64,000 bases of DNA, from positions 1,500 to 65,499 of the forward strand of contig JBBIPZ010000011.1 in NCBI GenBank assembly GCA_037442505.1, read 5' to 3'. Position 1 is the first letter of the stretch; every line of letters begins with the position of its first letter. This DNA comes from Deltaproteobacteria bacterium. GTDB taxonomy: Bacteria > CALINM01. Shown piece by piece: positions 11,930 to 40,671 of this stretch. The notes under the pieces were generated by a model that saw only the letters and a program-made list of their open reading frames with translations, was not told where the DNA came from and did not search any database. A program made the translations under genes and the position numbers.

Positions 11930-11945
11930 AGCAAAAAGCTTGCCA
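11930..11945 (-). promoter_or_regulatory. Sigma54 promoter of glnA
   Basis: Minus strand TGGCAAGCTTTTTGCT, exact GG-N10-GC spacing, about 40 nt upstream of the ATG. Confidence 0.85.
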
Positions 11946-25063: not shown

Positions 25064-25068
25064 GTGTG

Positions 25069-27024
25069 CTACCTCCTTTGTGATGTTATTTTAAATTTTT
25101 TTCTTAGAATTATATATAATATCCCACAAATTGCAATAACACCAACAATAAGCCTGATAACAAAAATAATGAGATATCTTTTTAACCACTGGACTCTCTC
25201 AATGATATCATTTGTGGCATTAATTTCACTTAGCTTTATAAATTTTTTGTAATGATAGAAAGCATAAAGATACCTTCCTTTATGATCGTAAATTTGAGCT
25301 AAATTAAAATGCGCTGTCGGAAAATCGCTATTGAAAAACAATGTCTCTTTAAAAAAACTTTCTGCTTGCTCTATTTTCCCTTCAGAAAGCTTTATAACAC
25401 CCAAATTATTATAAGCTTCCTGTTTGCCATTTGGATTATCATTATTAACTACCTTTTTTAAAATAGCCTCTGCATCACTCTTTTTTCCTTCATTTAATAG
25501 AATATTCGAATACATCACGAAGCCTCTGTTTGAAGGATTTTCCCGCAGCACTTTTTCAAGTTCAATTTTAACCATTTCAACATTCTTCTCTTCCTGACCA
25601 TAACCAGATACATAAACAGGCTTTAAGCTTTCTAACTCGTCTTTATTTGCCACCTCTGGATATCTGTTACGATCTAAAAAAATCATCGCATTATCATCAA
25701 AATATACAAGTGCGTAATTTTTTTTAAGCTCAGTGATATACAATGCCAACTCTGGATGATCAAAATCAATAAAAAAAATGTCTGGAGTAAAGTTTTCGAT
25801 GATTTTCAAAAAAGCATCCCTATTTTTGTGAGAATTGGCATAAAGCTTGATGAAATCAATTGGATAACAAAGTCTGCCATCAATCACCGGTTTGCAATCA
25901 GGATATAGATACTTTATTATATACCCACCAAATGCATAAGAATTGAAAATTTTGCCTTGTATTTTTTTCTTTTTTAAATAATCAACAGCACCTTTTGGAT
26001 AAAAATAGCTTGCTTCACCATATCCATAAGGTATTATGGGATTATAAAGATAATCTTTTACACAAAAGATAAGTATTACTACGAAAACAGATACCTTAAA
26101 TAAACTAAGTTTCTCTTCTCCCGGCTTAACTAATCCCCTATATCCAGTGATAGTCACCCAGAATCCAACAAATGCAAAGTAGTCGATAAACCTAACAAAT
26201 CTTATAGAAAGCAATAAATAAAAGAGATAAAATGATACTAATAACCATTTTTTTTCAGCAATAAGAAGATAAGCAGATACTAAAATTAACATGCCATAAA
26301 AAGAAAAGTAAAGTCTCGAATCTGTTGGCTGCCATTCAGATACCTTAATATAGTCGAATATGTTTTTTGTATCGCCCCAAAATGGGTTTAAAACTTCCAT
26401 AAATGGCAGATAAAAATGTTGATTAACAAGGCTGCCTAAAACAAGCGCTATAAAAGTTTTTGGCAATCCAATCCTTAACTGTCTGTTATAAGGATAGAGT
26501 AAGAGTAGATTAACTATCCCAAGTATAAAGCTGTTATTGGTATTTACCCAAAATAACTGATTTAAAAACAATAAAAAACGGAAAAATTTTGGTCTTTTTA
26601 TAAGCAGAAAAACATTAATAGCAAAAAACAAATAACTTAAATTATGTGGACGAAATAACAATCTATAACGCAATGTGAAGATAGACAACAGCAAAACAGA
26701 CAACAACAAAAATATATTAGTTTTTCGGTATACACATTTAGCAAGCAAAATAAAGCTCAATGCAACCACGATACACTGAACAATCGTTAAAAACGGTAGA
26801 CCAAACACATCACTAAAAAAATTAGCAAACTCCGAAAAAATAAATGAATAGTTTTTATAAGGAAAATCGGGAAAACTGTAAGAAAAGAGATTGATTTTAA
26901 TAGGCGATAAGATACTTTCTATTTCTGCAACTTTCAAATAGTAAAACAGATCAAAACTTCTTACCTTGATAAAGGAAAAGACAAAAGAAAATATTGCTAT
27001 TAAAAATAAATGTAGCCTTTTCAC
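25069..27024 (-). CDS. Polytopic membrane protein (GT-C-like glycosyltransferase fold) with C-terminal TPRs
   Basis: Many TM segments with FDLFYYL, FRPHNLS, SEWQP; soluble IFNSYAFGGY...IDGR; TPRs AYNNLGVI, AHFNLAQIY. Function is inferred. Confidence 0.65.
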   Translation of the reverse strand: MKRLHLFLIAIFSFVFSFIKVRSFDLFYYLKVAEIESILSPIKINLFSYSFPDFPYKNYSFIFSEFANFFSDVFGLPFLTIVQCIVVALSFILLAKCVYRKTNIFLLLSVLLLSIFTLRYRLLFRPHNLSYLFFAINVFLLIKRPKFFRFLLFLNQLFWVNTNNSFILGIVNLLLLYPYNRQLRIGLPKTFIALVLGSLVNQHFYLPFMEVLNPFWGDTKNIFDYIKVSEWQPTDSRLYFSFYGMLILVSAYLLIAEKKWLLVSFYLFYLLLSIRFVRFIDYFAFVGFWVTITGYRGLVKPGEEKLSLFKVSVFVVILIFCVKDYLYNPIIPYGYGEASYFYPKGAVDYLKKKKIQGKIFNSYAFGGYIIKYLYPDCKPVIDGRLCYPIDFIKLYANSHKNRDAFLKIIENFTPDIFFIDFDHPELALYITELKKNYALVYFDDNAMIFLDRNRYPEVANKDELESLKPVYVSGYGQEEKNVEMVKIELEKVLRENPSNRGFVMYSNILLNEGKKSDAEAILKKVVNNDNPNGKQEAYNNLGVIKLSEGKIEQAESFFKETLFFNSDFPTAHFNLAQIYDHKGRYLYAFYHYKKFIKLSEINATNDIIERVQWLKRYLIIFVIRLIVGVIAICGILYIILRKKFKITSQRR

Positions 27025-27212
27025 GCTAAATTCTCAATTTTTTTTTAAGATTTTATCACAAAGCAAGTGATTTAGATAGTTTAACAATTACTTTTTCAAG
27101 TTGTTATGAAATAGGTGAAGTATATGAAGGCATAACTAAACAAAAATAACTTAACTTTTTTTTAATTTTAAGCGATAATACAATACATAAAATTTCAAAG
27201 ATAGGAGAAAGT

Positions 27213-27869
27213 ATGAAGTTTTTTATTGATACCGCTAATTTAGACGAAATAAAAAAAGGTATAGATATTGGAATGGTGGACGGTGTAACAACTAATCCTT
27301 CATTGATAGCAAAGGAAAAAAAGCCCTTTCTGGAACTTGTAAAGGATATTTTGAAACTTGTTCCTGGTCCTGTAAGCATTGAGGTTACTGCACCTGATGT
27401 AGATGGCATGATTAAAGAAGCTCAAAAATATGCAAAGTTAGGTGATAATGCAGTTATAAAAGTTCCAACAACTATTGATGGTTTAAAGGTTATAAAGAAT
27501 CTTACCGCACTCGGTATAAAAACTAATGCTACGCTTATTTTTTCTCCTACACAGGCTTTGTTAGTAGCAAAAGCTGGAGCCACCTATGCAAGTCCATTTA
27601 TTGGAAGGCTTGATGACATTTCACAAAGAGGGATGGATCTTATCGAGCAAGTTATGCAGATTTATACTAACTACGATTTCGATACAGAAGTTATTGTAGC
27701 AAGTGTTAGACATCCAATGCACGTTTTAGAAGCTGCGCTGCTCCGTGCTCATATTGCAACTATCCCATTTTCTACAATTATGCAGTTAGTAAAACATCCA
27801 CTAACAGATGTTGGTATAGAAAAGTTCAATAAAGACTGGGAAGCATATAACAAGAGCATTAAGAAATGA
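27213..27869 (+). CDS. tal: Transaldolase / fructose-6-phosphate aldolase (short type)
   Basis: [48 protein letters not shown]. Confidence 0.94.
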
Positions 27870-27888
27870 GCCCTTTGAAAAAGGTCTC
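27868..27888. terminator. Short hairpin between convergent tal and mtnA
   Basis: GAGCCCTTT-GAA-AAAGGTCTC, one mismatch; fills the 18-nt gap between the stop codons. Confidence 0.4.
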
Positions 27889-28922
27889 TATACTGGTTTT
27901 AAGCGCTTAACTTCAGCCGGTTTAACAACTCCCTTCTCTGTGATTATACCAGTAATAAGTTCGGCTGGTGTCACATCAAAAGAAGGGTTATATACATTAA
28001 CGCCTTCTGGCACAAGCCTTTTACCCGCAAAATGAGTTATTTCAGTTGCAGGCCTTTCTTCGATAGGAATGTCAACACCAGACTGAATGTTAAAGTCAAA
28101 TGTGGATAATGGAGCTGCGATATAAAAAGGAATATTGTGATATTTTGCTAACACCGCAAGACTATATGTACCAATTTTATTTGCTGTATCACCATTTGCA
28201 GCAATTCTGTCTGCACCTACTACTATAAAATCAACTTTTCTCTGCGACATCAAATACCCCGCCATATTATCACAGATAACCGTTACTGGAATGCCATCCT
28301 TATTAAGTTCCCATGCAGTTAAGCGAGCACCCTGCAGGTACGGGCGAGTTTCATCAGCATAAACATTAATCTTTTTACCTTTCTTATGTGCGGCTCTTAT
28401 AACTGATAGCGCTGTTCCAAACTCAGAAGTAGCCAGGGCACCGGCATTGCAATGAGTTAAAATCGAATAACCATCTTTTATAAGTGCTTCTCCATTTTCA
28501 CCAATCTTCTTGCAGGTTAACACGTCTTCTTCGTATATTCGCTTTGCCTTTAAAACAAGCTCATCTTTAATCTCGTTTAAAGATAAACACGGACTCTCAT
28601 AAAATGTTCGTTTCATTCTGTTAATAGCCCAAAAAAGATTTACAGCTGTCGGTCTTGTTTTTGCAAACTCATCTAAAATCTCATCAAATTTAGTCTTAAA
28701 CTCCTCTTTATCAAGTGTCTCAATATTTTTTGCCCCTAATGCGATACCAAAAGCTGCAGCTATACCTATAGCTGGTGCACCTCGAATTATCATTTCTTTA
28801 ATAGCTGTTGCCACTTCTTTATAATCAGTGTAACTATAGTAAATTTCCTGTTCAGGTAATAGGCGCTGGTCAAGCATACTAACCTTTTCCCCATCAAAGC
28901 GAATTGTATAAAATGATGCCAT
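27888..28922 (-). CDS. mtnA: S-methyl-5-thioribose-1-phosphate isomerase
   Basis: LDQRLLP, IRGAPAIG, RPTAVNL, LTHCNAGALAT, ETRPYLQGARLT, NGDTANKIGTY, NPSFDVTP. Confidence 0.96.
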   Translation of the reverse strand: MASFYTIRFDGEKVSMLDQRLLPEQEIYYSYTDYKEVATAIKEMIIRGAPAIGIAAAFGIALGAKNIETLDKEEFKTKFDEILDEFAKTRPTAVNLFWAINRMKRTFYESPCLSLNEIKDELVLKAKRIYEEDVLTCKKIGENGEALIKDGYSILTHCNAGALATSEFGTALSVIRAAHKKGKKINVYADETRPYLQGARLTAWELNKDGIPVTVICDNMAGYLMSQRKVDFIVVGADRIAANGDTANKIGTYSLAVLAKYHNIPFYIAAPLSTFDFNIQSGVDIPIEERPATEITHFAGKRLVPEGVNVYNPSFDVTPAELITGIITEKGVVKPAEVKRLKPV

Positions 28923-28924
28923 TT

Positions 28925-30415
28925 TTAATGCTCCTTCTTTGAGATTCTCTTTTTTTGTTTAACAATCTTTTTTAATTCTTTCACTTCAAGTCCAAAGTTA
29001 GTAACCTTTTTTCTGAGGGTGTTTCTATTAATACCTAATATTTCTGCGGCTTTAATCTGATTGCCCCCCGTCATTATAAGTATTTTTTTTATCAATGGTT
29101 TTTCCACCTGCGAAACAACAAATTCATAAACATCTTTCATTTCTCCGTCCTGTAGTAGCCTTATAAGCTCGTTAAGCTTCAAATCAACAATCTCTTCTAA
29201 GGAAAGTTCTTTCATCATATTTTCACGCTCTTTTTCGAATATTAAAAAAGGGAAATCATTTTTTTCAAGAACTGTCGAACGTGAAATTAAATAAGCTCTT
29301 TTAATAGCATTTAAAAGTTCTCTCACATTTCCAGGCCAAGAATATGACTTAAGAAACTTTAAAGCATCCTCTGAAATTGTTTTTTTTAATCCGTACTCAT
29401 TAGAGAGATTTTTGAGAAAATAGTTTATCAAAAGTGGTATATCGTCATATCTGTCACGTAAAGGTGGTAAAACAATAGAAATCTGGTTAAGTCGGTCATA
29501 AAGATCTGCTCTAAACATTTTGTTTTTTATCAGTTCTAATAAATCCTGATTGGTTGCAGCAATTATTCTAACATCAATACGTATAGGATTATTACCCCCC
29601 ACAGGTATAACCTCTTTCTCCTCTATCACACGCAATATTTTTGCTTGCAAATCAATAGACATATCGCCTATTTCATCAAGAAATAGAGTTCCATTATGTG
29701 CCAACTCAAACTTACCTATCTTTCTTTCTGTTGCACCTGTAAAGGCTCCTTTCTCATAGCCAAAAAGCTCACTTTCCAGCAGTTCTTTAGGGATCGCTGC
29801 ACAATTAACCGAGATAAACTGTTGATTTGCCCGTTTTCCGCTATTATGTATCGCCCTTGCAACAAGCTCTTTTCCAGTTCCTCTTTCGCCCTGTATCAAC
29901 ACCGTAATGTCACTATCTGCTATTTTACCAATGATCTTAAATATCTCATTCATAGCAGGGGTATTGCCAATTATATTCAGTTCATCTTCAACGTTATTTT
30001 TAGCATTTTTTTCTTTCGACTTTGCAGAACAAGTTTGTTCATATGACTTAATTGCCTTATCTGCAAGCTTTTCTATAGCTGAAATATCAAAAGGCTTGGT
30101 TATGTATTCAAAGGCACCCCTTTTCATCGCCTCTACGGCATTTTTCATTGTGCTTTGTGCCGTCATTACGATTACTGGTGTTTGAACATTAGAAGCCTTT
30201 ATCTGATTTAGCACATCAAGTCCAAAGATATCAGGCATTATTATATCCATAAAAATCAAATCATAGTTTTGATTTGCAATTTTTTCGAGAGCTTCTTTTC
30301 CCGTATAGGCTTCATCAACAATAAAATCTTTACTCGCAAACAAACGCTTCAACACCCAACAAATATTCTTTTCGTCGTCTACAACAAGAATTTTTTTTGT
30401 TTTATCAAGCGTCAT
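28925..30415 (-). CDS. ntrC: NtrC-like sigma54 response regulator
   Basis: REC domain; GERGTGKE; ESELFGYEKGAFTGA; WPGNVREL; GGNQIKAAEILGINRNTLRKK; paired with a cytoplasmic PAS kinase. Orthology to NtrC is inferred. Confidence 0.82.
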   Translation of the reverse strand: MTLDKTKKILVVDDEKNICWVLKRLFASKDFIVDEAYTGKEALEKIANQNYDLIFMDIIMPDIFGLDVLNQIKASNVQTPVIVMTAQSTMKNAVEAMKRGAFEYITKPFDISAIEKLADKAIKSYEQTCSAKSKEKNAKNNVEDELNIIGNTPAMNEIFKIIGKIADSDITVLIQGERGTGKELVARAIHNSGKRANQQFISVNCAAIPKELLESELFGYEKGAFTGATERKIGKFELAHNGTLFLDEIGDMSIDLQAKILRVIEEKEVIPVGGNNPIRIDVRIIAATNQDLLELIKNKMFRADLYDRLNQISIVLPPLRDRYDDIPLLINYFLKNLSNEYGLKKTISEDALKFLKSYSWPGNVRELLNAIKRAYLISRSTVLEKNDFPFLIFEKERENMMKELSLEEIVDLKLNELIRLLQDGEMKDVYEFVVSQVEKPLIKKILIMTGGNQIKAAEILGINRNTLRKKVTNFGLEVKELKKIVKQKKRISKKEH

Positions 30416-31470
30416 AGATGCTCCTTCATTGGGAGAAAGATGCTTATTTTGGTCCCACTATTTTTCTTGCTTTCTACGTTGATAAAGCCCGAGTGGTCTA
30501 AAATTACCTTTTGAGCATATACCATTCCTAAACCAGTGCCACCTTGTTTGGTTGTAAAGAAAGGAGTGAATAAATGTTTTAAATCTTCTTCTGTAATGCC
30601 ATAGCCCGTGTCTGTGACCTCTATGAGTAAATAGTTGTATTCTTTTTTGTTTTCACGAGATTTCATATCTAACAACACTTTAATTTTTACTGTGACCTTG
30701 CCTCCAATAAAACAGGCTTCTACTGCATTTTTAATTATATTAAAAAGAGCCTTATGAATGCTCTCTTTGTCTCCACAAAAATCTGGAAACGTTGAGTCAT
30801 ACTCTTTTAAAATTACTAACTTTTTTTCTAATATCATTGGCCTTAAAGATTCAATTATATTCTGTACAACATCCAGAATGTTAAATATTTCTATGTTAAT
30901 CTTCTGAGGCGCAGAATAATCAAGAAGGGATTGAATTATCGTTTCAATTCTTGAAAGCTCTGTAAATATGATTTCAAATGCTTCTGCTTCGTTCTTGCCA
31001 ACTCCATCTTTTTTCATTAATTGCAAAATACCTTTTATAACTCCTAAAGGATTTTTAATTTCGTGTGCCATGCTTGCAAATAAAGTTGCCAGTTTTTCTA
31101 CATGAGCTTGCTGTTGTTTTGTTGATTCTATAGATTTAAAAAAAGAACAATCTTCCAAAATTATGACAATATCGCCATCCTTAGAAAGTAAAGGAATCAG
31201 GTAAAAGTTCAATAAAAACCTCTTACCAAAATAGTTTATAAAGGGTTCTTCATAAACACGTGCAACTTTACCCTCTTGTTTCACCTTTAAAAAGATGTCT
31301 TTAATTTTTTGAGAAAACGATAATTCGTCAAAAGGTTTTTTTAGCTTGTTTAAAGAGAGCCCCAAAATATTTTCAGCAGATGTGTTAACGTAACATATTT
31401 TATCTTCAGAATAAAGCAAAATACCAAAAGGGAGCTGTTCTAAAATTTTATCGTAAATACTTGTTTTCAT
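30412..31470 (-). CDS. ntrB: NtrB-like cytoplasmic PAS histidine kinase
   Basis: PAS (YVNTSAENILG), H-box MAHEIKNPL, NIIKNAVEA, FTPFFTTKQGGTGLG; no TM. ATG at 31470 preferred over TTG at 31479. Confidence 0.8.
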   Translation of the reverse strand: MKTSIYDKILEQLPFGILLYSEDKICYVNTSAENILGLSLNKLKKPFDELSFSQKIKDIFLKVKQEGKVARVYEEPFINYFGKRFLLNFYLIPLLSKDGDIVIILEDCSFFKSIESTKQQQAHVEKLATLFASMAHEIKNPLGVIKGILQLMKKDGVGKNEAEAFEIIFTELSRIETIIQSLLDYSAPQKINIEIFNILDVVQNIIESLRPMILEKKLVILKEYDSTFPDFCGDKESIHKALFNIIKNAVEACFIGGKVTVKIKVLLDMKSRENKKEYNYLLIEVTDTGYGITEEDLKHLFTPFFTTKQGGTGLGMVYAQKVILDHSGFINVESKKNSGTKISIFLPMKEHL

Positions 31471-31471
31471 A

Positions 31472-31906
31472 TCAATCAATTGTCTCTAAAATCATGCCTA
31501 CTCTTACCAATCCGCCCTTCAAAACTTTACAAAAGATACCTTCTTTTGGCATCACACAATCACCAACAGTTTTATATATGTTGCATTTTGTGTGACAGAT
31601 CTTGCCATGTTGACTTACCTCAAGTAAAACATCTCCAACTGTTAGTTTTGTACCGATAGGTAAAGCAAGCAAATCAATGCCCTCTGTAGTTATATTCTCA
31701 GCAAAATCACCAGCTTTAACATCCAGCCCCATTTTTTGCATTTTTTCTATGCTTTCCTGTGCCAGAAGGCTTACCTGCCTTATTCCACCTTCTGCATGGG
31801 CGTCTCCTTCTATGCCTTTTTGTTCTATCAGCATTGCTTCATTAACAGGCCTCTTTTTAATAGATTTCTTTTCACAAACATTAATCGAAATAATTTTCCC
31901 TTTCAT
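31472..31906 (-). CDS. MOSC domain protein
   Basis: GIEGDAHA, RQVSLLA, GDFAENITTEG, GKICHTKC, CVMPKEGIF. Confidence 0.92.
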   Translation of the reverse strand: MKGKIISINVCEKKSIKKRPVNEAMLIEQKGIEGDAHAEGGIRQVSLLAQESIEKMQKMGLDVKAGDFAENITTEGIDLLALPIGTKLTVGDVLLEVSQHGKICHTKCNIYKTVGDCVMPKEGIFCKVLKGGLVRVGMILETID

Positions 31907-31921
31907 TTTTCCTCCAATTTA

Positions 31922-34162
31922 CTAATTTCTAATGTGATTTGCCTTTATAATAAGTTCATCATAATCTTCTCCATCTTCTGGAAATCTGGCAAAACCATAT
32001 CTTACAGTAACCACTTGATCTATCAGATGTTTTGGATCCCAATCTTCTTTTTCGAACATCTTTTTTAATCTGAAGATTATTTCTAATGTTTTCTCATCAG
32101 CATCCACCAAAACCACACCAAATTTATTTACGTTTAACCTTGCTACAACCTCAAAACTTCTTATCTTTTCTCTTATCTGTGTGGCAATACTTTTAATAAT
32201 GTTATCAGTAGTTTTTTTACCGTAAGCATTTAGATATTTTTCGTATGGTTCAAATTCTCCCACGAGAATTATCACCCTTTTCCCATGTCTTTTTGCCCTC
32301 ATCACCTCATCATAAACACGGCTTTCAAAGTATCTAAAGTTAGGCAACCCGGTAAGCGCATCAAAAAACTCTTCATCTTTAAATGCCCTTTTTCTATGTA
32401 AATCGCTTAAGAGCTCTGCAGCCTTTTCAAAAAGTTTTAGTATGAAGTTTTTATCTGATTTCGAAAATACCTCACCTATTATTTTACCTTCACTGTTATA
32501 AAAAGAAAATGTCATATAAATTTGTTCGTTAAAATGTAACGGCGCTATTAAAAAACTGTGAACAGCATGAGAATATATAAAAAACTGTTTGTCTTTGTTT
32601 GTATTTTTTACCAATGCTATTTCTCCGTTTGTAAGAACTGTCTTTTTAACTATTTCACGGTCAATCTGGAAAAACTCTTTTTTTATTATTCCATCCATAC
32701 CATAAACATCTTTAACCACATAAGATTTTCTATCCTCGTCGTAGATTCTAAAAACACCGATTTTTGCATCTAACTCTTTTGCAAGATTGTGTAATATATA
32801 AGAGCCAAACGCAACAGGATTATCAAAAAGTGTAAGTTCTGACACAAGTTTATCAATAAGTTCTTTGCGTCTATTTTGTTCTATCAACCCCTCTTTTTGA
32901 TAACTTAAAGAAATTAGCCTCGAAATTTGTGATGCCAATTCTTTAAAAAAGCTTGTTTTTTCGTTACACTCTTTTTCAAAATTTATAATTGATAACACTC
33001 CAAAGCATGTATCACCATCTATTAAAGGCAAGGATAGATATCCTTTAAAACCTTCACAATCAGGTTCGATAAAGCATATCTCTTTTTTATCCAGGAAAAC
33101 TTTGCGTTCTATAGTATTCTCCGAAAGCACATCACTAAACTCTAAAAAAGGCAGGTTTGTACTAACAGATTCAGAATACTCATCACCACCATAAATAGCT
33201 ATTAACGAATGAACGCCAAAAACTTCTTTGAAATATCCAACGATCTTGTTAAGTTTATCTTGAATAGGCAATTTTTCTGATATTATTTTTGATAATTCGG
33301 AAACAGTTTTAAACATCTTCGCATCTTCTCTGTATTCTGTGAAACTTTTAGATGTAAAAAGTATATCCGTAATAACCTTTGATACATCAACAACAAACGT
33401 GAGGTCTTTTTCTGAAAACGCATTAATGTTATTTTGATTGGCTAAATTCAGTACACCTACTAAATTATTTTCTTTAACCAACGGAACACATATCGCAGAC
33501 TTTATATCTTCACGTTTTCTTAATTTTTTAAAGTTTCTGTCATCGGGACTTCCGCTAATAATAACAGGTTTTTTTGTATTGGCAACAGTTCCTGCAATCC
33601 CCTCTCCGAGTGGTATCTTTACAAAATCCCATAAAATTCTATCTATACCATAAGCCATTGCAATCTTTAAAACACTCTCCTTATTGTCAAAAAGCATTAT
33701 AGAGCCTCTTGTAGCACCGATATAACTACAAAGCCCTCTTAATATTTCGTTTAGTAATTTTTCTCTATCGAAAAGCATAGATATGTTATTAGCTATATTC
33801 TTAAGTTCAGAAACAATTTTAAGATAGTCTTTTTTTGTAGATGTCTCTAAAGCAGGAAGCTCATAAAGAAATGCTGCAGAAGTACCACTGATTACCTTAA
33901 TATTATCCAAGCCCAACTTAATTAGTTGATTTTTTAATGACTCATCATCATCTACGTTCAGTATCGCAAAGATACTATCTTTCTCAGCCATAATATCCTT
34001 TAAGCTGCTTTTTATAATTTTTTTTGGAATATCTGAGTTCTGAATATAATTTCTATTTTCGGGAACGATAACATACAAAACCTCTACATTCTTTTCATTC
34101 AAGATGGCATTATACAGAGAAACTACCTTTTCACTACTGCCATAAAGGACAATCTTATACAT
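31922..34162 (-). CDS. Multi-GAF (three) protein with C-terminal degenerate GGDEF domain
   Basis: GAF1 RGSIML...GEGIAG...ICVPL...GVLNL; two further GAF-like repeats; DALTGLPNFRYF; signature site reads NVNKF. Start ATG at 34162 lies 1 nt after the upstream stop. Confidence 0.87.
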   Translation of the reverse strand: MYKIVLYGSSEKVVSLYNAILNEKNVEVLYVIVPENRNYIQNSDIPKKIIKSSLKDIMAEKDSIFAILNVDDDESLKNQLIKLGLDNIKVISGTSAAFLYELPALETSTKKDYLKIVSELKNIANNISMLFDREKLLNEILRGLCSYIGATRGSIMLFDNKESVLKIAMAYGIDRILWDFVKIPLGEGIAGTVANTKKPVIISGSPDDRNFKKLRKREDIKSAICVPLVKENNLVGVLNLANQNNINAFSEKDLTFVVDVSKVITDILFTSKSFTEYREDAKMFKTVSELSKIISEKLPIQDKLNKIVGYFKEVFGVHSLIAIYGGDEYSESVSTNLPFLEFSDVLSENTIERKVFLDKKEICFIEPDCEGFKGYLSLPLIDGDTCFGVLSIINFEKECNEKTSFFKELASQISRLISLSYQKEGLIEQNRRKELIDKLVSELTLFDNPVAFGSYILHNLAKELDAKIGVFRIYDEDRKSYVVKDVYGMDGIIKKEFFQIDREIVKKTVLTNGEIALVKNTNKDKQFFIYSHAVHSFLIAPLHFNEQIYMTFSFYNSEGKIIGEVFSKSDKNFILKLFEKAAELLSDLHRKRAFKDEEFFDALTGLPNFRYFESRVYDEVMRAKRHGKRVIILVGEFEPYEKYLNAYGKKTTDNIIKSIATQIREKIRSFEVVARLNVNKFGVVLVDADEKTLEIIFRLKKMFEKEDWDPKHLIDQVVTVRYGFARFPEDGEDYDELIIKANHIRN

Positions 34163-34163
34163 A

Positions 34164-35198
34164 TTAATTCTCTCCAAACTCAAATTTTAGTTTAATTTTT
34201 AAAGATTTTTCTGTTTTACCGAAACTAAACTTAAGAGGTATCTCTATCTCACTCTCACTAACAGATGGATTTTGTAATTCCACTTTGAACTCATCTTCTA
34301 TAACTTGCTTTTCTTCGTATGTTAAAGCCTGCTGGGATAAAATATTGTTTTCAAATACTTTTGGTGCTTCTTCGCTTACAGCTTCTCGTTCAGGCTCTTT
34401 TTTAATCTCATCAAAAAGTTCTAATTCTTCCTCAATTTCATGTTCTTCGCTCTTTTCCTCTTCAACCTTTTCAGTTTCTGTCTCTCCTAATAAATCGAGC
34501 ATTTTAAGAGCTTCATCTGAATAATCTTCAGGCAGATATGCAGCTCTTTTTTTAACTTCTTCTGATTCTTTTTTTACTTCAGGCTCCTCTTCAGCTGTAA
34601 CAGAAGCAAATTCAGATGAATCCTTAAGCTTTTTCATAACTAACCGACAAATAGCTGTTAATGTTTCAAGCACACCTTTACCTTCTGTAGCTACGGCCTG
34701 AAAAAAAGGCACTTTAAATTTATTTAACTGAGCGTATAGCTCTTCTAAATCCATAACATCAGGTAAATCTCTTTTATTAAACTGAATCACAAATGGCATA
34801 TCTTTAAAATTTTTGCCATGTTCTTTTAAGTTATCTTCCAGATTTTTAAGACTTTCTAAATTGTCTTCTAACATCTGTTTTTGAGAGTCAGCAACAAACA
34901 CAATACCATCTACGCCCTTTAAAACCATTTTTCTTGTAGTGTTATAAAAAATTTGGCCGGGAACAGTATAAAGATGAAAACGTACTTTATAACCTCCAAT
35001 CTCGCCCATATTAATAGGCAAAAAATCAAAAAAAAGAGTCCTATCCGTTTGCGTGGCAAGACTGATAAGTTTACCCCTGCTTTCTGGCTTCAACTTTTTG
35101 TGAATGTAAACAATATTAGTAGTTTTCCCAGATAAACCAGGACCGTAATAAACGATTTTTGCATTTACTTCTTTGTTCGTGTAGTTAATAAAAGCCAT
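34164..35198 (-). CDS. MglA-family small Ras-like GTPase with long acidic C-terminal extension
   Basis: KIVYYGPGLSGKTTN, DRTLFFDF, LYTVPGQ, GVDGIVFVADS, NKRD, AVA; about 150 extra residues, Glu-rich. Confidence 0.92.
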   Translation of the reverse strand: MAFINYTNKEVNAKIVYYGPGLSGKTTNIVYIHKKLKPESRGKLISLATQTDRTLFFDFLPINMGEIGGYKVRFHLYTVPGQIFYNTTRKMVLKGVDGIVFVADSQKQMLEDNLESLKNLEDNLKEHGKNFKDMPFVIQFNKRDLPDVMDLEELYAQLNKFKVPFFQAVATEGKGVLETLTAICRLVMKKLKDSSEFASVTAEEEPEVKKESEEVKKRAAYLPEDYSDEALKMLDLLGETETEKVEEEKSEEHEIEEELELFDEIKKEPEREAVSEEAPKVFENNILSQQALTYEEKQVIEDEFKVELQNPSVSESEIEIPLKFSFGKTEKSLKIKLKFEFGEN

Positions 35199-36274
35199 CA
35201 GCCCTTCCTTGTAACCATAATTTTTCTTGCAATAGTTGCTAATTGTGATGATACATTTCTGCTCTTTGCCACAGTAGCAAGGTCTTTAACACCTAAGGAA
35301 GGTAAAAATTTTATTGCATTTTGCAGCGGAGTTTTAGGATTCAGTACAAGATTCAGCTTTACATTGTAATTTTGTGTCCAGTTTCTATCGTTCGCTATCA
35401 TCCGTATTATATCATCAGGCAGATTTTTGTCCTGAGAAAACTTAATAATTTCGCCCTCCGTAATACGTGGATTTTTTAGAACAGCAGTGGAAACTAACTT
35501 ATTTGTATCTTTTATTAAAATACTTCTAACCTCTTTGTTTCCAAGAGAAGCCAGTTTAATCTTTTCAGCCACGCCCATTTTTGCAATTTTACCAGCGATA
35601 CTTCTTTTTTTCTCTTCATCATCCTCCTTAACTTCATCAACGAACTGCTTATAATTTTCCTCTTTTTTCTTTTCTATAGCGGTAGTTTTTTTAACAGGTA
35701 TCGAAGATGTATTATTAGCTTTATCTGTTGTAGCCGGTTTATCTTGTTTAAACACTTCATCTGTTTTACTCGAATCAACTTTTTCGCCAGATGTTTTAGG
35801 TTGTTTGTAATGTAAGACTTTCACGTAATGCTCTTTTGGAAGTGCAGTATTATTCAACAGATTATCAATCGTTCCCGAGTCTTTTGACCATTTTTCTTCA
35901 TTCTTGAGCAATATCTCTAATATATCAGTTTTGGGCAGTTTAGAAAAAAGTCTTATTGCCTTTATAGGAACATTTTGGTGTAACAGTATATTCTGTAAAA
36001 CGTCTAAATCCTTTTGAAAAACATAGGATAAAAAATAAAGTTCTTGTTCACCAGGAATATCTGTTAGTAAAAAATTTTTAATCAATGTGCGGGGCATCTT
36101 TTCTAAAACTTCTATACATTTTTCTCTTATGCCATCGCTATTTTCTATGGCATATCTAACTATTATGTAAATCAGCTCATTTGGTGGCAGAGGAAATTTT
36201 CCCTCTACCACCATAAACTTAATCTCTTTTTTTTGTTCTAAAAGCAGTTTTTGAGCAATCTCTGAAAGCTTCAT
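35198..36274 (-). CDS. Conserved hypothetical protein with two helical-repeat (HEAT/LRV-like) domains and a charged linker
   Basis: EGKFPLPP N-domain; C-domain KIKLASLGNKEVRSILIKD...AVLKNPRIT...LVLNPKTP; stop/start overlaps with both neighbours. Confidence 0.8.
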   Translation of the reverse strand: MKLSEIAQKLLLEQKKEIKFMVVEGKFPLPPNELIYIIVRYAIENSDGIREKCIEVLEKMPRTLIKNFLLTDIPGEQELYFLSYVFQKDLDVLQNILLHQNVPIKAIRLFSKLPKTDILEILLKNEEKWSKDSGTIDNLLNNTALPKEHYVKVLHYKQPKTSGEKVDSSKTDEVFKQDKPATTDKANNTSSIPVKKTTAIEKKKEENYKQFVDEVKEDDEEKKRSIAGKIAKMGVAEKIKLASLGNKEVRSILIKDTNKLVSTAVLKNPRITEGEIIKFSQDKNLPDDIIRMIANDRNWTQNYNVKLNLVLNPKTPLQNAIKFLPSLGVKDLATVAKSRNVSSQLATIARKIMVTRKG

Positions 36275-38355
36275 TATCCTTCCGATTTCTCTTTTTTTGC
36301 TTGTTGGATTATCTTTTCACTTAAATGTGTCGGTACTTCCTCATAATGAGAAAATTTTACCGTAAACAAAGCCTTTCCACTCGTCAAAGATTTTAAGTCA
36401 TTAGCATATTTAAGTATTTCAGCCATTGGAACTTTGGCTCTAATAATCTGGCTGTTAGCCTTTGGCTCAACACCTACAACATGCCCCCTTTTGCTATTAA
36501 TATCTCCTATTATATCCCCCATGCATTCATCCGGTGTTATTACCTCTAAATCCATAATTGGTTCAAGCAAAACAGGATTTGCATTTTGGGCTGCTTTTTG
36601 AAATGCCATTGAACCAGCTATTTTAAAAGCCATTTCTGAGGAATCAACAGGATGAAACGAACCATCATATAATCTAACCCTTACATCAACGGTAGGAAAT
36701 CCAGCAATAACACCTTCCTGCATCGCTTCAACAATACCTTTCTCAACCGCTGGTATATACTGCTTTGGTATAACACCACCAACTATATTATCAATAAATT
36801 CAAAACCTGCACCTCGAGGTAGAGGCTCTATTTCAATCCAGCAATCCCCATACTGTCCTCTTCCACCTGACTGTTTCTTGTATTTTCCTTGTGCCTGTGC
36901 CCTGATCTTTATAGTTTCTTTATAAGGAACTTTAGGCGTTTTTAGTTCTACTTCAACTCCATACTTTCTTTTCATTTTTTCGAGAGTAATTTCTATGTGT
37001 GTCTGACCTACTCCAGAAAGAAGAAACTCTTTCGTTTGCTCATTCATAGAAAAGCCAATCGTTGGGTCTTCATCAATAATTTTTTGAATTGATTGACTTA
37101 ATTTGTCTTCATCAGCTCTTGTTTTAGGCACAACCGCAAAAGAAATCACCGGTTCAGGAATATCTGGTGCTTTATAAAGTATAGGGGCATTTTCATCACA
37201 AAGGGTGTCGCCTGTCTTAACATCTTTTAATTTTGGTAAAGCAACAATATCACCAGCACAAGCTTGATTTACAGGTTTAAATTTTTTCCCTTCTATAATC
37301 ATAATATTCCCTATGCGTTCCCTGTTTCCAGTTTTCGCATTAAGAACGGTTGTTTCTGGCGTCATCTTGCCTGAAAAGACACGCATAACTGAAACTTTAC
37401 CTGTAAAGGCATCAACATAAGTTTTAAATATAAATCCAGAAAAAGGTGCATCTGGCACCCTTTTTCTTCTTTCTTCCTGCTTGGTTACAGGGTTTATACC
37501 AATAGTATCTGGTACTTCGTCAGCAGACGGCAATGTCAAATTTACCCAGTTTAAAAGATGAGCTACTCCAATATTTTTGTAAGCAGAACCACACAATACA
37601 GGAATAAACTGATGTGTCTGAGCCCCTAACTTAAGGGCAGCTATAATCTCTTCGTTTGATATTTCCTGCCCTTCTAAATACTTTTCTGTCAACTCATCAC
37701 TTACTTCAGCAACCTTTTCTACAAGAAAATCTCTGAGCCTTTCAACCTCTGATTCTATCTCTTTGGGAATCTCACCTTTTTTATATGTTCCCGAGCCATT
37801 TTCATCAAAATAAAAGGCTTCTTTAGTTAAAAGCTCTACAAAACCCTTAAAATCAGACTCTTGCCCAATTGGGTACTGTAACGGCACTGGAGTTACCTTA
37901 AGCTCTTTCTCCAAATCATCAACCGCTTTCAAAAAGTCCGCCCTCTCTCTGTCCATCTTGCTCACAAAAGCTATTCTTGGAATACGCCATTCCTCCAACA
38001 AATTCCATAATGTATGCGTTTCAACCTTTACTCCTGATATTGCACTTATAATTACCACAGCACCAGTTGCAGCTTTGAGACAAAATTCCGTATCTTTCAA
38101 AAAGTTAGCATAACCTGGCGTGTCGATTATATTTATGTAATTTTTATTCCAGAGTATGTGATGAAAGGCAGAAGAAATACTTATTTTTCTTTCAATCTCT
38201 TCAGGTTCAAAATCAAAAACAGTTGTACCATCATCAACTTTTCCCATCTTTTCTGTAACTTTCGCATTGAAAAGCATTGCCTCAGCAAGTGTTGTTTTTC
38301 CGGCTCCCCCATGCGCAACTAATGCAATGTTCCATCTTTTTTCAAAATCTGCCAT
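36274..38355 (-). CDS. fusA: Elongation factor G paralogue (EF-G2 type)
   Basis: Full five-domain EF-G layout (KYKKQSGGRGQYG, DGSFHPVDSSEMAFK, LLEPIM) with a divergent G-domain: AHGGAGKTT, EEIERKISI, DTPGY, SKMD; not in an rpsL-rpsG-fusA-tuf operon. Confidence 0.92.
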   Translation of the reverse strand: MADFEKRWNIALVAHGGAGKTTLAEAMLFNAKVTEKMGKVDDGTTVFDFEPEEIERKISISSAFHHILWNKNYINIIDTPGYANFLKDTEFCLKAATGAVVIISAISGVKVETHTLWNLLEEWRIPRIAFVSKMDRERADFLKAVDDLEKELKVTPVPLQYPIGQESDFKGFVELLTKEAFYFDENGSGTYKKGEIPKEIESEVERLRDFLVEKVAEVSDELTEKYLEGQEISNEEIIAALKLGAQTHQFIPVLCGSAYKNIGVAHLLNWVNLTLPSADEVPDTIGINPVTKQEERRKRVPDAPFSGFIFKTYVDAFTGKVSVMRVFSGKMTPETTVLNAKTGNRERIGNIMIIEGKKFKPVNQACAGDIVALPKLKDVKTGDTLCDENAPILYKAPDIPEPVISFAVVPKTRADEDKLSQSIQKIIDEDPTIGFSMNEQTKEFLLSGVGQTHIEITLEKMKRKYGVEVELKTPKVPYKETIKIRAQAQGKYKKQSGGRGQYGDCWIEIEPLPRGAGFEFIDNIVGGVIPKQYIPAVEKGIVEAMQEGVIAGFPTVDVRVRLYDGSFHPVDSSEMAFKIAGSMAFQKAAQNANPVLLEPIMDLEVITPDECMGDIIGDINSKRGHVVGVEPKANSQIIRAKVPMAEILKYANDLKSLTSGKALFTVKFSHYEEVPTHLSEKIIQQAKKEKSEG

Positions 38356-38435
38356 AGTTACCCCCTTTTGTTTTTTTCGATAAAGTCATAAATAAATTTA
38401 TCACAAATTAAATAACTTTCTATAATCTTTTTTGA

Positions 38436-39209
38436 CTAATCTTTGACGTTCATTTCATATAGCAGTTTTAGCCCATAAAGAGTTAGATGTTCGTCCACAA
38501 TTTTTATATGTGACGTTTCTTTAGATATTACTGTTGCAAGACCACCCGTAGCAATAAACTTTAACCCTTTTTCATTCATCTCATACATAATCTTATCACA
38601 GATAGCATCAACCATTCCTGCGTAACCGTAAACTATGCCTGCTTGAATCGCCGCAACGGTGTTTTTGCCAATAATCCTTTCTGGTCTAATCAGTTCTATC
38701 TTTGGTAATTTTGCCGTACGTTCTGACAATGCTTCTAATGATATCTCTATCCCCGGTATTATGACTCCACCTAAATATTCTCCCTTTTTTGACACACAAT
38801 CAAACGTTGTAGCAGTACCAAAATCAACTATAACAAGCGGGTTTTTGTATTTATTATATGCTGCAACTGCATTAACAATTCTATCAGCCCCTACTTCTTT
38901 GGGATTATCGTAAAGTATTGGCATACCAGTCTTTATACCGGGACCAACGAAAAACGCATCCTTGTGAAAGTATTTTTTACTCATCCTCGATAGCGTAATA
39001 GTGAGAGGAGGCACGACATTTGAAATCGCAATACCGGTTATATCTGATACCGCAATCTGTGAATGTTCGATAAAATTATAAAACAGTATTCCAAGCTCGT
39101 CTGCAGTACGATTTTTTTCAGTCCTTACGCGCCAAGAATTTATTATCTTTTCCCCTTTAAAAATACCTGCTGCAATCTGCGTATTACCTACATCAATTAC
39201 GAACAACAT
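38436..39209 (-). CDS. coaX: Type III pantothenate kinase
   Basis: IDVGNT, ISNVVP, GADRIVNA, VDFGTATTFD, IATGG. Confidence 0.96.
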   Translation of the reverse strand: MLFVIDVGNTQIAAGIFKGEKIINSWRVRTEKNRTADELGILFYNFIEHSQIAVSDITGIAISNVVPPLTITLSRMSKKYFHKDAFFVGPGIKTGMPILYDNPKEVGADRIVNAVAAYNKYKNPLVIVDFGTATTFDCVSKKGEYLGGVIIPGIEISLEALSERTAKLPKIELIRPERIIGKNTVAAIQAGIVYGYAGMVDAICDKIMYEMNEKGLKFIATGGLATVISKETSHIKIVDEHLTLYGLKLLYEMNVKD

Positions 39210-39246
39210 ATCTGACTCCTTACAATTTAGTTAGATTATCATTTGC

Positions 39247-39687
39247 TCAAAACTCTTTCCACATTATTAATGCATCTTCTCCTGTATCTTGATAATAATT
39301 TTTTCGTACTCCCTTTATAACAAAACCAAAATGCTTATAAAAATTAATCGCATTATCATTTCTGTGCCTTACCTCAAGTGTAAATTTATTTGCACCCTTT
39401 TTAGCAGCATCTTGAAATAACGTTTCAATGATAAGTCTGCCCACGCCCTTTTTTCTTTGCTCTGAGGCAACTGCAAGATTTAAGATGTGAACTTCCGGAA
39501 CGATAAGCCAGGAAAGAACATATCCAACCACTTTATCAGATTGTTCAGCCACCAAATTTAGGGAAAGAGGAAAAAGAATCTCTTCTTTTATAAGCTGTTT
39601 AGACCACGGAGTAGGAAAAGACATTTTTTCTATTTCTTCAATCTCTTCAATATCTGAAAGCTGTGCGGTTCGAATTGTAATATTCAT
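39247..39687 (-). CDS. rimI: Ribosomal protein S18 alanine N-acetyltransferase
   Basis: SFPTPWS, HILNLAV...RKKGVG, TLEVR..N..A..FY..FGF, RKNYYQDTGEDALIM. Confidence 0.9.
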   Translation of the reverse strand: MNITIRTAQLSDIEEIEEIEKMSFPTPWSKQLIKEEILFPLSLNLVAEQSDKVVGYVLSWLIVPEVHILNLAVASEQRKKGVGRLIIETLFQDAAKKGANKFTLEVRHRNDNAINFYKHFGFVIKGVRKNYYQDTGEDALIMWKEF

Positions 39688-40577
39688 ATTTCACCTTTTA
39701 ATTTTGTAAGCTCTTCCTCTATCATTCTTATCACGATAGCCTTTTCAGATGACCATGAAGGTGCTATAAGCTCTCCCTTGTGTGCATCACCTGTAACTCT
39801 ATGAATAACTATATCAGGAGACAGATGATATAAAAATTTAGCTACTAAAGACACATATCTATCTCGCTCTATAGGCAGAAAATCACCTGAACGGTATAAC
39901 TTTTCAAGCCGACTCCCTTTTGCAACATAAAGCAAATGAATCTTAACACCATTGACTTGAAGATTGTTCAAGTATCGAGCAGTCTCGAAAATCTCATCTT
40001 CGTTCTGTTCAGGAAAACCAATGATAATGTGAGCTACTATGTCAAAAGGATATTGTTTAGCTAATTTAACAGCATTGGTAAAGCTTTCAAGTGTGTGTCC
40101 CCTACCAATCCAATTTAAGGTGTGAGGGTTGATTGTTTGAAGCCCTAACTCCAAAAAAACTTTATGATCTTTGGAAAACTCATTCAAAACATCAAGTTTC
40201 TCCTTATCCACACAATCAGGCCTTGTACCAACAGAAATTCCTACAATATCATCAAACTTTCTTATATTACCCCAAATATCTCTTAGAAAATCTGGTGGAG
40301 CATACGTGTTAGTGTATGACTGGAAATATGCTATAAACGCATCTACATTTCTGTATTTACGCTTAATTCCTTCTATGCCTCTAAATATCTGTTCTTCGAT
40401 ACTCAAGCCTTGCTTTGACAGGCCAGTGCCAGAACCTCTATCGTTACAATAAACACAAGGTGTTCCGTTATCCCTGTTTGGGCAGGAAAGTCCAGCATCA
40501 ATCGTAACTTTATATACTTTCTTGCCGAAAATTTCGAAAAAATAAGATTTTAAATCTCTATAAGGTCTTTTTTTCAT
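39684..40577 (-). CDS. TIGR01212 (YhcC-like) radical SAM protein
   Basis: IDAGLSCPNRD...CVYC, YFQSYTNTY, GTRPDC, ELGLQT, GVKIHLL, IHRVTGD; start taken at MKKRPY. Confidence 0.9.
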   Translation of the reverse strand: MKKRPYRDLKSYFFEIFGKKVYKVTIDAGLSCPNRDNGTPCVYCNDRGSGTGLSKQGLSIEEQIFRGIEGIKRKYRNVDAFIAYFQSYTNTYAPPDFLRDIWGNIRKFDDIVGISVGTRPDCVDKEKLDVLNEFSKDHKVFLELGLQTINPHTLNWIGRGHTLESFTNAVKLAKQYPFDIVAHIIIGFPEQNEDEIFETARYLNNLQVNGVKIHLLYVAKGSRLEKLYRSGDFLPIERDRYVSLVAKFLYHLSPDIVIHRVTGDAHKGELIAPSWSSEKAIVIRMIEEELTKLKGEI

Positions 40578-40671
40578 TTCAAACTTGGTGTTTTTATTAT
40601 AAAATAACATAGTTAGGAAAAACAAGAACCCTTTAAACTACTACAAAAAAATACCTTTTAGGAGGCATATC

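Follow-up and report, generated by a model that had tools for sequence, protein, structure and literature searches.

MglA is the model for the eukaryote-like small GTPase that organises the bacterial cell. To our knowledge, beyond MglB, RomR/RomX, RomY and a few Myxococcus effectors, little has been learned about the control of MglA paralogues that have no adjacent MglB. Here we describe a locus of this kind in a 64,000-nucleotide (nt) stretch of contig JBBIPZ010000011.1 (assembly GCA_037442505.1, Deltaproteobacteria bacterium), referred to below as the window. A run of eight minus-strand open reading frames (ORFs) at 27888-38355 encodes an elongation factor G (EF-G) paralogue, a helical-repeat protein (HEL), an MglA-type GTPase, a protein with three GAF domains and a dead GGDEF domain (GAF/dGGDEF protein), a MOSC-domain protein, a histidine kinase, a sigma-54 activator and MtnA. 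Comparison with related loci revealed that the MglA-type GTPase, HEL and the GAF/dGGDEF protein form a conserved unit without an adjacent mglB, beside an atypical EF-G. No description of this four-gene cluster was found in the searchable MglA literature.

The closest working analogue is the MglA/Bd2492/CdgA hub of Bdellovibrio bacteriovorus, where experiments showed that an MglA without an MglB binds the TPR protein Bd2492 in a 1:1 ratio and that CdgA, a receptor with a degenerate GGDEF domain, is bound in turn by Bd2492 (PMC3983030). Both systems combine an MglA-type GTPase that has no adjoining mglB with an alpha-helical-repeat partner, and in both the active site of the GGDEF domain is dead, with the sequence GVNEF in Bdellovibrio and NVNKF here, beside a receptor-type site that is putative in our protein (PMC3983030). 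The Bdellovibrio genes are scattered, whereas those described here are adjacent and overlapping (PMC3983030), and the present locus differs further in its 150-residue GTPase tail, its three GAF domains and the attached EF-G paralogue. Because HEL is ARM/HEAT-like and gave no TPR match, it is an analogue of Bd2492 and not a homologue.

Several other described proteins resemble single members of the cluster. The group-1 MglA proteins of Myxococcus xanthus and Thermus thermophilus share their fold, P-loop, Arg finger, TVPGQ motif and NKxD motif with the GTPase of the window (PMC4316618, PMC3199381), which differs from them in the absence of an adjacent mglB, in its C-terminal tail and beta module, and in its fixed HEL partner gene. 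SofG, an orphan MglA paralogue of M. xanthus, is a group-1 protein with an intrinsic Arg finger whose activity MglB does not stimulate and for which no GTPase-activating protein (GAP) is known (PMC4316618). Compared by description only, SofG shares an own Arg finger with our GTPase, which is probably likewise an extra group-1 paralogue, but SofG is 239 amino acids (aa) long and no link to a HEL, EF-G or GGDEF protein has been described for it (PMC4316618). Thermus EF-G-2 and Bacteroides EF-G2, as cited in PMC12172202, are likewise second, divergent EF-G copies with altered G motifs, and the Bacteroides protein is cited there as working without GTP hydrolysis; unlike this type, the window EF-G scores higher on canonical EF-G models than on curated EF-G2 models.

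The eight genes are, in the direction of transcription, those for the EF-G paralogue (36274-38355, 693 aa), HEL (35198-36274, 358 aa), the group-1 MglA-type GTPase with its C-terminal extension (34164-35198, 344 aa), the GAF/dGGDEF sensor or receptor protein (31922-34162, 746 aa from the ATG at 34162), the MOSC-domain protein (31472-31906, 144 aa), a PAS-HisKA-HATPase histidine kinase (30412-31470), a response regulator with REC, sigma-54 AAA+ and Fis-HTH domains (28925-30415, the activator) and MtnA (27888-28922). All are co-oriented. The EF-G and HEL ORFs meet at TAATG with base 36274 common to both, and HEL and the GTPase meet at TGATG with base 35198 common to both. The GTPase stop codon ends at 34164 and is followed, after 1 nt, by the GAF/dGGDEF start codon at 34162; a 15-nt gap containing GGAGG precedes the MOSC gene, whose stop codon ends at 31472, 1 nt before the kinase ATG at 31470. 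The kinase and activator share a 4-nt ATGA overlap (30412-30415) and the activator is separated from MtnA by 2 nt. Minus-strand reading of each boundary verified this arrangement, which had been described in an earlier note on the same DNA, and the domain calls of that note (EF-G, GTPase, triple GAF with dead GGDEF, MOSC, kinase, activator and MtnA) were upheld by Pfam, by NCBIfam with its curated cut-offs and, for the GAF domains, by HHalign; HEL has no Pfam family. The same-strand run continues upstream to 40625 through genes for CoaX (type III pantothenate kinase, 38436-39209, minus strand, identified by a Pan_kinase match of the gene in the syntenic locus L001), RimI and a radical-SAM protein, and is ended downstream by a convergent transaldolase-family gene (27213-27869, plus strand).

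The junctions had been taken as a sign of strong translational coupling. Gaps of 2 nt or less were found at 6/7 junctions of the run and at 11/40 of the other co-directional junctions in the window (Fisher p = 0.006), for which the median gap was 10 nt. The run is thus tighter than its surroundings, yet packing alone is weak evidence. Promoter and terminator scans of positions 27000-41000 gave counts at or below shuffle expectation and are therefore uninformative on operon limits. The only sequencing runs found to contain this sequence were DNA metagenomes from hot spring, sediment and subsurface; no RNA runs were among them. A role in anti-phage defence was also considered and rejected, as PADLOC models gave no match for HEL, the GTPase, the GAF/dGGDEF protein or the MOSC protein, and the sole match among the core proteins was a weak one of mad8 to the P-loop region of EF-G (E = 2e-4).

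To follow the neighbourhood across genomes, relatives of HEL were traced by alignment to species genomes and the best 80 loci were annotated by phmmer with the window proteins as queries. A second, independent survey used the GAF/dGGDEF protein as anchor on metagenome contigs from a different collection. Both surveys, of 80 loci each, comprise best-scoring loci and not a random sample; the distant set of the first consists of 77 loci whose HEL is approximately 26-33% identical to that of the window, and counts are given over the loci with enough flanking sequence. HEL relatives were present in 528 species genomes. The distant loci came mostly from Myxococcota and from metagenome-assembled genomes labelled 'Deltaproteobacteria', with Desulfuromonadota-like genomes included. 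Upstream of HEL, CoaX was found in 58/61 distant loci and EF-G in 56/67; downstream, an MglA-like GTPase was found in 49/67. The metagenome survey revealed a GTPase upstream of the GAF/GGDEF gene in 50 of 57 loci (88%), HEL nearby in 31/35 and EF-G nearby in 22/27. In the genome survey the GAF/dGGDEF gene occurred only ever together with the GTPase, in all 32 distant loci that carry it and in the window clade. Co-occurrence of HEL, GTPase and GAF/dGGDEF protein extends well beyond close relatives, to Myxococcota and Desulfuromonadota-like genomes with a HEL of no more than about 28% identity.

Spacing was conserved along with order. The HEL stop and GTPase start overlapped in 50/62 loci and were no more than 30 nt apart in 61/62, and the gap between the GTPase and GAF genes was at most 30 nt in 36/42. 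Between EF-G and HEL the spacing was looser: overlaps were seen in 15 loci, Myxococcota among them, while most gaps measured 30-150 nt and 14 loci carried an additional gene of about 1 kilobase (kb), which in annotated examples usually encodes a SPOR-domain protein. Three loci of the HEL survey had the GTPase without EF-G and 10 had EF-G without the GTPase. EF-G is a conserved upstream neighbour and the loosest member of the cluster. Distance matrices of the four core proteins remained correlated after the CoaX signal was removed, with positive partial Mantel correlations for all pairs (GTPase-GAF 0.55, EF-G-GAF 0.47, HEL-GTPase 0.37); these mirror-tree values are weak evidence because shared phylogeny inflates such tests. 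Taken together, the surveys identify a four-gene core consisting of a His-less EF-G paralogue, HEL, the tailed MglA-type GTPase and the triple-GAF/dead-GGDEF protein.

No upstream neighbour of the cluster is as constant as CoaX, which lies 80 nt ahead of the EF-G paralogue in the window. The order that recurs in annotated contigs with tailed class-A GTPases and HEL homologues is nadC-birA-coaX-EF-G-(SPOR protein)-HEL-GTPase-(MOSC)-mogA; the part from nadC to EF-G was read in L003, L087-L089, L171 and L172, of which L087 has no EF-G. In Desulfuromonadota-like genomes a gene for a SPOR-domain protein, of the type that binds septal peptidoglycan, stands directly before HEL, following EF-G or, in L087, coaX (L004 8151-8960; L087 5466-6863; L088 5877-6941; L089 5909-7204; L171 5700-6983).

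By its sequence and predicted structure the GTPase is a true group-1 MglA type. The G domain (aa 1-194, 34617-35198) contains the P-loop GPGLSGKT (35121-35144), an Arg finger, R53, in the DRT motif (35037-35045) of the stretch TDRTLFFDF beside the G2 Thr, a G3 motif TVPGQ (aa 78-82, 34953-34967) with Thr for the usual Asp and the catalytic Gln kept, and NKRD at 34767-34778. The protein matched the Arf, Ras and Gtr1 families in Pfam and aligned to M. xanthus MglA chains with 262 bits and 60% identity. An AlphaFold2 (AF2) model of the G domain superposed on M. xanthus MglA bound to GTPgammaS (6h17) with a template-modelling (TM) score of 0.93 and a root-mean-square deviation of 1.9; the best structural matches outside MglA had TM scores of 0.77 or less. 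At 344 aa the protein is far from a single-domain MglA of about 195 aa. C-terminal to the G domain lie a disordered acidic tail (aa 195-300, 34299-34616), of net charge -23, and a beta module (aa 301-344, 34167-34298) in which three strands are predicted (aa 304-338, AF2 predicted local distance difference test (pLDDT) 76-86). The closest relatives are all tailed, with HEL upstream; TVPGQ is invariant in 39 tailed relatives, and the G domain is very highly conserved across the tailed family. Within the acidic tail, YLPEDYSDEALKMLD (aa 221-235, 34494-34538) is conserved across the window clade; its LPEDY portion is invariant in 10 orthologues and missing from more distant tails, and the segment may be a linear binding motif.

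The GTPases of the related loci fall into two classes. Class A retains intact catalytic residues. In class B the P-loop and NKRD are kept, but the Arg finger is lost to DPS or DPT and the catalytic Gln to PGG or PGA. Tail and beta module are common to the two classes, and the beta-module pattern IPL.f......k...l.I.l is conserved in tailed class A and in Myxococcota class B. A GAF/GGDEF gene followed the class-B GTPase in 32/33 loci of the HEL survey and the class-A GTPase in 0/7 loci outside the window clade, a pattern suggesting that the switch can take its input from ligand sensing instead of hydrolysis. The window clade combines a GTPase that has intact catalytic residues with a GAF/GGDEF gene. 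We also observed that in Myxococcota (for example L018, L027, L036, L048 and L075) the nucleotide sites of three cluster proteins have decayed in parallel while gene order is kept: EF-G reads DTPGD and has N-G-x-D for NKxD, neither Arg finger nor Gln is left in the GTPase, and the GGDEF motif is gone.

An MglA usually has a Roadblock/LC7 GAP encoded within four genes. None was found here. Pfam detected no Robl_LC7 (MglB) domain in 48 window ORFs, five further genes (CoaX, radical-SAM, GidA, PurB and PurL) were identified from the Pfam matches of syntenic locus L001 and two ORFs outside the Pfam scan (5713-7977 and 12024-13046) were identified by eye, which bears out the earlier statement that the window has no MglB/roadblock gene. 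Nor did 13 related loci with annotation show a Roadblock/MglB gene over the surrounding 7-10 kb. Geobacter is reported to have a canonical adjacent mglA-mglB pair, GSU0099/0098 (PMC2825233). On an uncultured Geobacter contig (L029) HEL is accompanied by a class-B GTPase; on a Geobacteraceae contig (L037) no class-B GTPase is present and MOSC follows HEL. Given the Geobacter pair, these HEL loci and the shared tail, the HEL-linked GTPase is more likely an extra MglA paralogue. The MglA groups were defined in a 2014 survey that retained proteins of 150-240 aa only (PMC4316618), and this size filter explains why the tailed subfamily is missing from it.

HEL consists of two alpha-solenoid domains, one N-terminal (aa 1-158, 35801-36274) and the other C-terminal and strongly basic (aa 225-358, 35201-35602), connected by a disordered linker (aa 159-224, 35603-35800), with pLDDT above 90 for both domains of the AF2 model and below 50 for the linker. 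No Pfam or NCBIfam match was obtained, and Pfam at E <= 1 with six HEL members returned only sub-threshold LRV_2 and HEAT repeat matches. Foldseek likewise returned only generic ARM, HEAT, importin and Puf matches (E >= 0.006, TM <= 0.25) and no specific relative. The family is a large one, numbering 1346 clusters at E <= 1e-30. Its conserved part is the C-terminal domain, which has many invariant Lys and Arg residues and a net charge of +12 to +15 in 19/19 aligned members; the most conserved stretch is AEKIKLASLGNKEVR (35525-35569). Three proteins of 546-930 aa (P0349, P0353 and P0380) are fusions of this domain with PATAN (DUF4388) domains, of which they have one, two or four, and by these sequences the HEL family is tied to PATAN signalling proteins. 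We also compared HEL with SopA (MXAN_0371), which regulates type IV pilus formation in the MglA/SgmX pathway of M. xanthus (PMC11580455). SopA resembles HEL in having two conserved folded regions, a non-conserved disordered linker and no known domains, and it has no Foldseek match (PMC11580455); it was set beside HEL by description and by termini deduced from primers. Identity of the two was rejected because the SopA termini (MPPPDA... and ...LKAVPK) do not match the HEL homologues of Myxococcaceae, which begin and end differently and adjoin coaX.

The GAF/dGGDEF protein begins with a domain of unknown type (33788-34162), followed by GAF1 (33359-33769), GAF2 (32843-33325), GAF3 (32369-32842) and a degenerate GGDEF domain (31925-32362; PF00990, 80 bits, aa 607-749 of the 753-aa ORF). 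HHalign matched GAF1 to GAF2 at 97.7% and to GAF3 at 97.0%. NVNKF replaces the GGDEF motif (32120-32134), GG[DE]EF was found in 0/41 homologues and the upstream DxD-type stretch is also replaced; judged by these residues, the GGDEF domain is non-catalytic. The position of the I-site, five residues before that of the GGDEF motif, is occupied by RSFE (32150-32161). Across the homologues this position reads RxxD in 33/41 and RxxE in 8/41, the latter being the window clade, and the Arg is invariant.

The EF-G paralogue has all five domains (Pfam GTP_EFTU, D2, III, IV and C). Its P-loop, AHGGAGKTT (38290-38316), aligns with AHIDAGKTT, and its switch II motif is DTPGY (38110-38124), with the Tyr opposite the His of DTPGH in solved EF-G and RRF2mt chains. 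The motif was readable in 57 of the 68 cluster-linked EF-Gs and was not found in the other 11; His was present in none of the 57 (Asp 37, Tyr 12, Val 6, Phe 1, Ile 1), and in the EF-Gs of Myxococcota clusters NKxD is also degenerate. The switch-II His of EF-G has an established role in GTP hydrolysis. Its loss argues that this copy is a distinct paralogue, unlikely to be the housekeeping translocase. The name EF-G2, under which the gene had first been listed, was abandoned: the protein passed the canonical EF-G model (TIGR00484, 751.7 against a cut-off of 659.4), fell below both EF-G2 cut-offs (NF009377, 621.6 against 890; NF058620, 545.5 against 1000) and, among sequences in the PDB, aligned better with Thermus EF-G (626 bits) than with EF-G-2 (1wdt, 483 bits).

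The remaining four genes had been counted as part of the same signalling module. Among the 39 distant loci with at least 9 kb of downstream sequence, MOSC, kinase, activator and MtnA were each found in none, and the full set of eight genes is confined to the window's own clade, where it was seen in the 7 close loci for which enough sequence is available. The MOSC protein (Pfam MOSC, 44 bits) matches the C-terminal half of the NCBIfam MoaC/MOSC model PRK14499 and is probably tied to molybdenum cofactor metabolism. Its gene follows the GTPase directly in L088 and L090 and HEL directly in L037, and was absent from all 57 distant metagenome loci; it recurs as a neighbour in a few further lineages but is not a core member, and it has no relation to signalling. 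Kinase, sigma-54 activator and MtnA are additions of the window clade alone, and the kinase was present only in those 7 close loci whose downstream sequence is long enough. MtnA (S-methyl-5-thioribose-1-phosphate isomerase, methionine salvage) passed its equivalog model (TIGR00512, 468.7 against a cut-off of 279) and is a housekeeping gene that closes the run. The eight genes are thus not one module.

The two regulators had been named NtrB and NtrC and read as a link to nitrogen status. Their architecture fits the names: the kinase is cytoplasmic, with a PAS-HisKA-HATPase arrangement that is NtrB- or AtoS-like, and the activator has the REC, sigma-54 AAA+ and HTH domains of NtrC. The curated equivalog cut-offs were missed. 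The kinase scored 136 on NtrB (PRK11073, cut-off 240) and 201 on AtoS (cut-off 646); the activator scored 509 on TIGR01818 (cut-off 558.6) and 420 on PRK10923 (cut-off 620) for NtrC, and 440 on AtoC, also under its cut-off. The AtoS/AtoC scores were reported as equal to or above those for NtrB/NtrC, all four being under cut-off. 'NtrB/NtrC' is accordingly a family-level label only, since both proteins fall below the NtrB/NtrC cut-offs, and with kinase, activator and MtnA in 0/39 distant loci the comparison lends no support to a link with nitrogen status. A second minus-strand pair, of a histidine kinase (3905-5326) and a sigma-54 regulator (2578-3912) overlapping by 8 nt, lies elsewhere in the window, and the true nitrogen regulators could be either of the two pairs. 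The window also contains glnA (glutamine synthetase, 10476-11888, minus strand), with a sigma-54-type promoter match, TGGCAAGCTTTTTGCT, at 11930-11945 on the minus strand, approximately 40-55 nt before its start and with one mismatch to TGGCAC-N5-TTGCW.

We consider it probable, with a confidence somewhat better than even, that the run is a composite: an operon-like array with an ancient four-gene functional heart built around a GTPase switch, to which genes were added in the window clade only. The core of the earlier proposal, a GTPase switch with flanking partners, is retained in this form through the conservation of the cluster, while its eight-gene extent and its nitrogen wiring are not. 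The GTPase would act as a GTP/GDP switch that in the window keeps its own Arg finger and catalytic Gln. HEL would be its first, stoichiometric partner, made together with it through translational coupling and serving as effector or scaffold, and the GAF/dGGDEF protein would dock on the GTPase-HEL pair, with its GAF domains supplying a small-molecule signal and its RxxD/E site possibly binding cyclic di-GMP (c-di-GMP). Candidate outputs are the organisation of the cell pole or of type IV pili, or control of the co-encoded EF-G paralogue. Pole or pilus organisation is suggested by the PATAN fusions of HEL and by response regulators with PilZ, MshEN and PATAN domains nearby, and the constant EF-G paralogue together with the very basic HEL domain makes a ribosome-directed role possible. 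Those response regulators are related to c-di-GMP (REC-PilZ, MshEN-REC, REC-GAF-GGDEF and PATAN-REC-GAF) and lie a few kb downstream of HEL/GTPase in lineages without GAF/dGGDEF (L090 4370-5089; L171 8583-9302; L172 10779-11609; L089 12053-13495 and 14782-16443).

Several observations weigh against this composite switch. HEL stands without an adjacent GTPase in 17/61 distant loci with enough flank on both sides. In Desulfuromusa, Malonomonas and Geothermobacter the arrangement is EF-G-(SPOR)-HEL, with Geothermobacter ehrlichii carrying EF-G-SPOR-HEL and no GTPase; in Myxococcaceae and Vulgatibacter it is coaX-HEL. Since HEL keeps its invariant residues in these loci, its function must extend beyond this GTPase and its conserved surface cannot serve the GTPase alone. 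Outside the window clade, GTPases with intact catalytic residues lack the GAF/dGGDEF gene; binding of c-di-GMP in the window clade is uncertain because its site is RxxE and not RxxD; and the whole window is compact, which makes tight packing weak evidence. Finally, the cluster sits inside a longer syntenic housekeeping block (valS-nadC-birA-coaX ... MOSC-mogA), so that part of the conservation is possibly inherited gene order. Taken to its end, this last point becomes the view that a conserved block in a compact genome has kept the genes together while each acts independently. We regard that as improbable. The block joins valS, nadC, birA, coaX, MOSC and mogA, which have no obvious common function, the other co-directional junctions of the window are short too, and HEL and EF-G are each found without the GTPase; but order and overlaps are kept from Myxococcota to Desulfuromonadota-like lineages while the surrounding genes change, HEL and GTPase overlap in most loci, the GAF/dGGDEF gene was seen in the genome survey only with the GTPase, which lies upstream of it in 88% of metagenome loci, and catalytic residues decayed in parallel in three proteins of Myxococcota. 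The opposite extreme, that all eight genes serve one pathway in which an MglB-independent GTPase is wired to translation and, through NtrB/NtrC, to nitrogen, is very unlikely. All seven junctions are 15 nt or shorter, the arrangement recurs in 7/7 close relatives with enough sequence, and the promoter match before glnA and a glnE gene after MtnA in L003 would suit it. The kinase, activator and MtnA are nevertheless missing not only from the distant loci but from every annotated class-A locus, both regulators fall short of the NtrB/NtrC models, the pair at 2578-5326 could equally be the nitrogen pair, and MtnA is a methionine-salvage enzyme.

The GTPase could alternatively be the cell's sole MglA, working as an ordinary switch with an MglB encoded elsewhere, with HEL and GAF/dGGDEF at most pilus or polarity effectors and the EF-G irrelevant. 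This is a credible reading that we nonetheless doubt. The G domain has all group-1 catalytic motifs besides its 60% identity to M. xanthus MglA, its very high conservation would be expected if several partners including MglB constrained it, the visible genome is 64 kb only, and the fusions of the HEL C-terminal domain to PATAN point to pilus or polarity pathways. It is at odds with the 150-residue tail and conserved beta module, which are missing from the characterised MglA proteins of 195-197 aa (PMC4316618), with the closest relatives all being tailed and having HEL upstream, and with the canonical mglA-mglB pair reported for Geobacter (PMC2825233), which together with the HEL-linked class-B GTPase of L029 favours an extra paralogue. 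A different output is assumed if GTPase, HEL and GAF/dGGDEF protein form a translation-control module that regulates the co-encoded EF-G on the ribosome, for example for slow, GTP-sparing elongation or recycling on nucleotide signals, with the HEL C-terminal domain binding rRNA or the ribosome. EF-G is conserved upstream in both surveys (56/67 and 22/27) with a start/stop overlap with HEL in 15 loci, the catalytic His is in none of the readable cluster EF-Gs and NKxD is degenerate in Myxococcota, distance matrices correlate between EF-G and GAF (0.47), the charge of the HEL C-terminal domain is typical of nucleic-acid binders throughout, and Bacteroides EF-G paralogues are cited in PMC12172202 as working with little or no GTP hydrolysis. 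We judge this module unlikely, as EF-G is the loosest member of the cluster, with most gaps at 30-150 nt and the insert of about 1 kb in 14 loci, the GTPase occurs without EF-G in 3 loci and EF-G without the GTPase in 10, and ribosome binding by HEL is a prediction. We also know of no precedent for a Ras-like GTPase controlling EF-G, which counts against it. Its most specific form, in which the GTPase and a receptor for c-di-GMP or a GAF ligand, held by the basic solenoid, control a hydrolysis-deficient EF-G on the ribosome and so link second-messenger and GTP status to elongation or recycling, is a speculation to which we give equally little credence.

Other features of the window were noted in passing. 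Just past the convergent transaldolase gene lie genes for a 651-aa TPR protein and a DUF438-hemerythrin-PAS protein (23867-27024, minus strand); L001, the closest of the relatives compared, has the same two genes at this place, and L002 and L003 have others. The selenocysteine-specific elongation factor SelB is encoded at 54231-56123 (minus strand), and its presence indicates that the organism probably uses selenoproteins. A 207-aa ORF without a Pfam match (49563-50186, plus strand) lies inside a purine run (purB, purL, purQ, purF ... purM, purN). Positions 1-2577 contain no complete ORF of at least 90 aa and no Rfam match, have a GC content of 0.41, above that of the rest of the window, and are probably part of a long gene running off the left end.

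Whatever the output of the proposed switch, the cluster provides a concrete candidate partner set for an MglA paralogue without an adjacent MglB, kept together in more than 500 species. It brings into view the uncharacterised HEL family, whose sequence clusters number more than 1300, together with a tailed MglA subfamily outside the 2014 survey and a conserved pseudo-cyclase with a putative receptor-type site. The class-B lineages, in which Arg finger and Gln are lost, nearly always keep the GAF/dead-GGDEF gene (32/33), which suggests a natural experiment in hydrolysis-free switching. A His-less EF-G beside a signalling GTPase makes the question of what such EF-G copies do a testable one, and if the ribosome reading were true, Myxococcota and Desulfuromonadota-like bacteria would couple elongation or recycling directly to second-messenger and GTP status.

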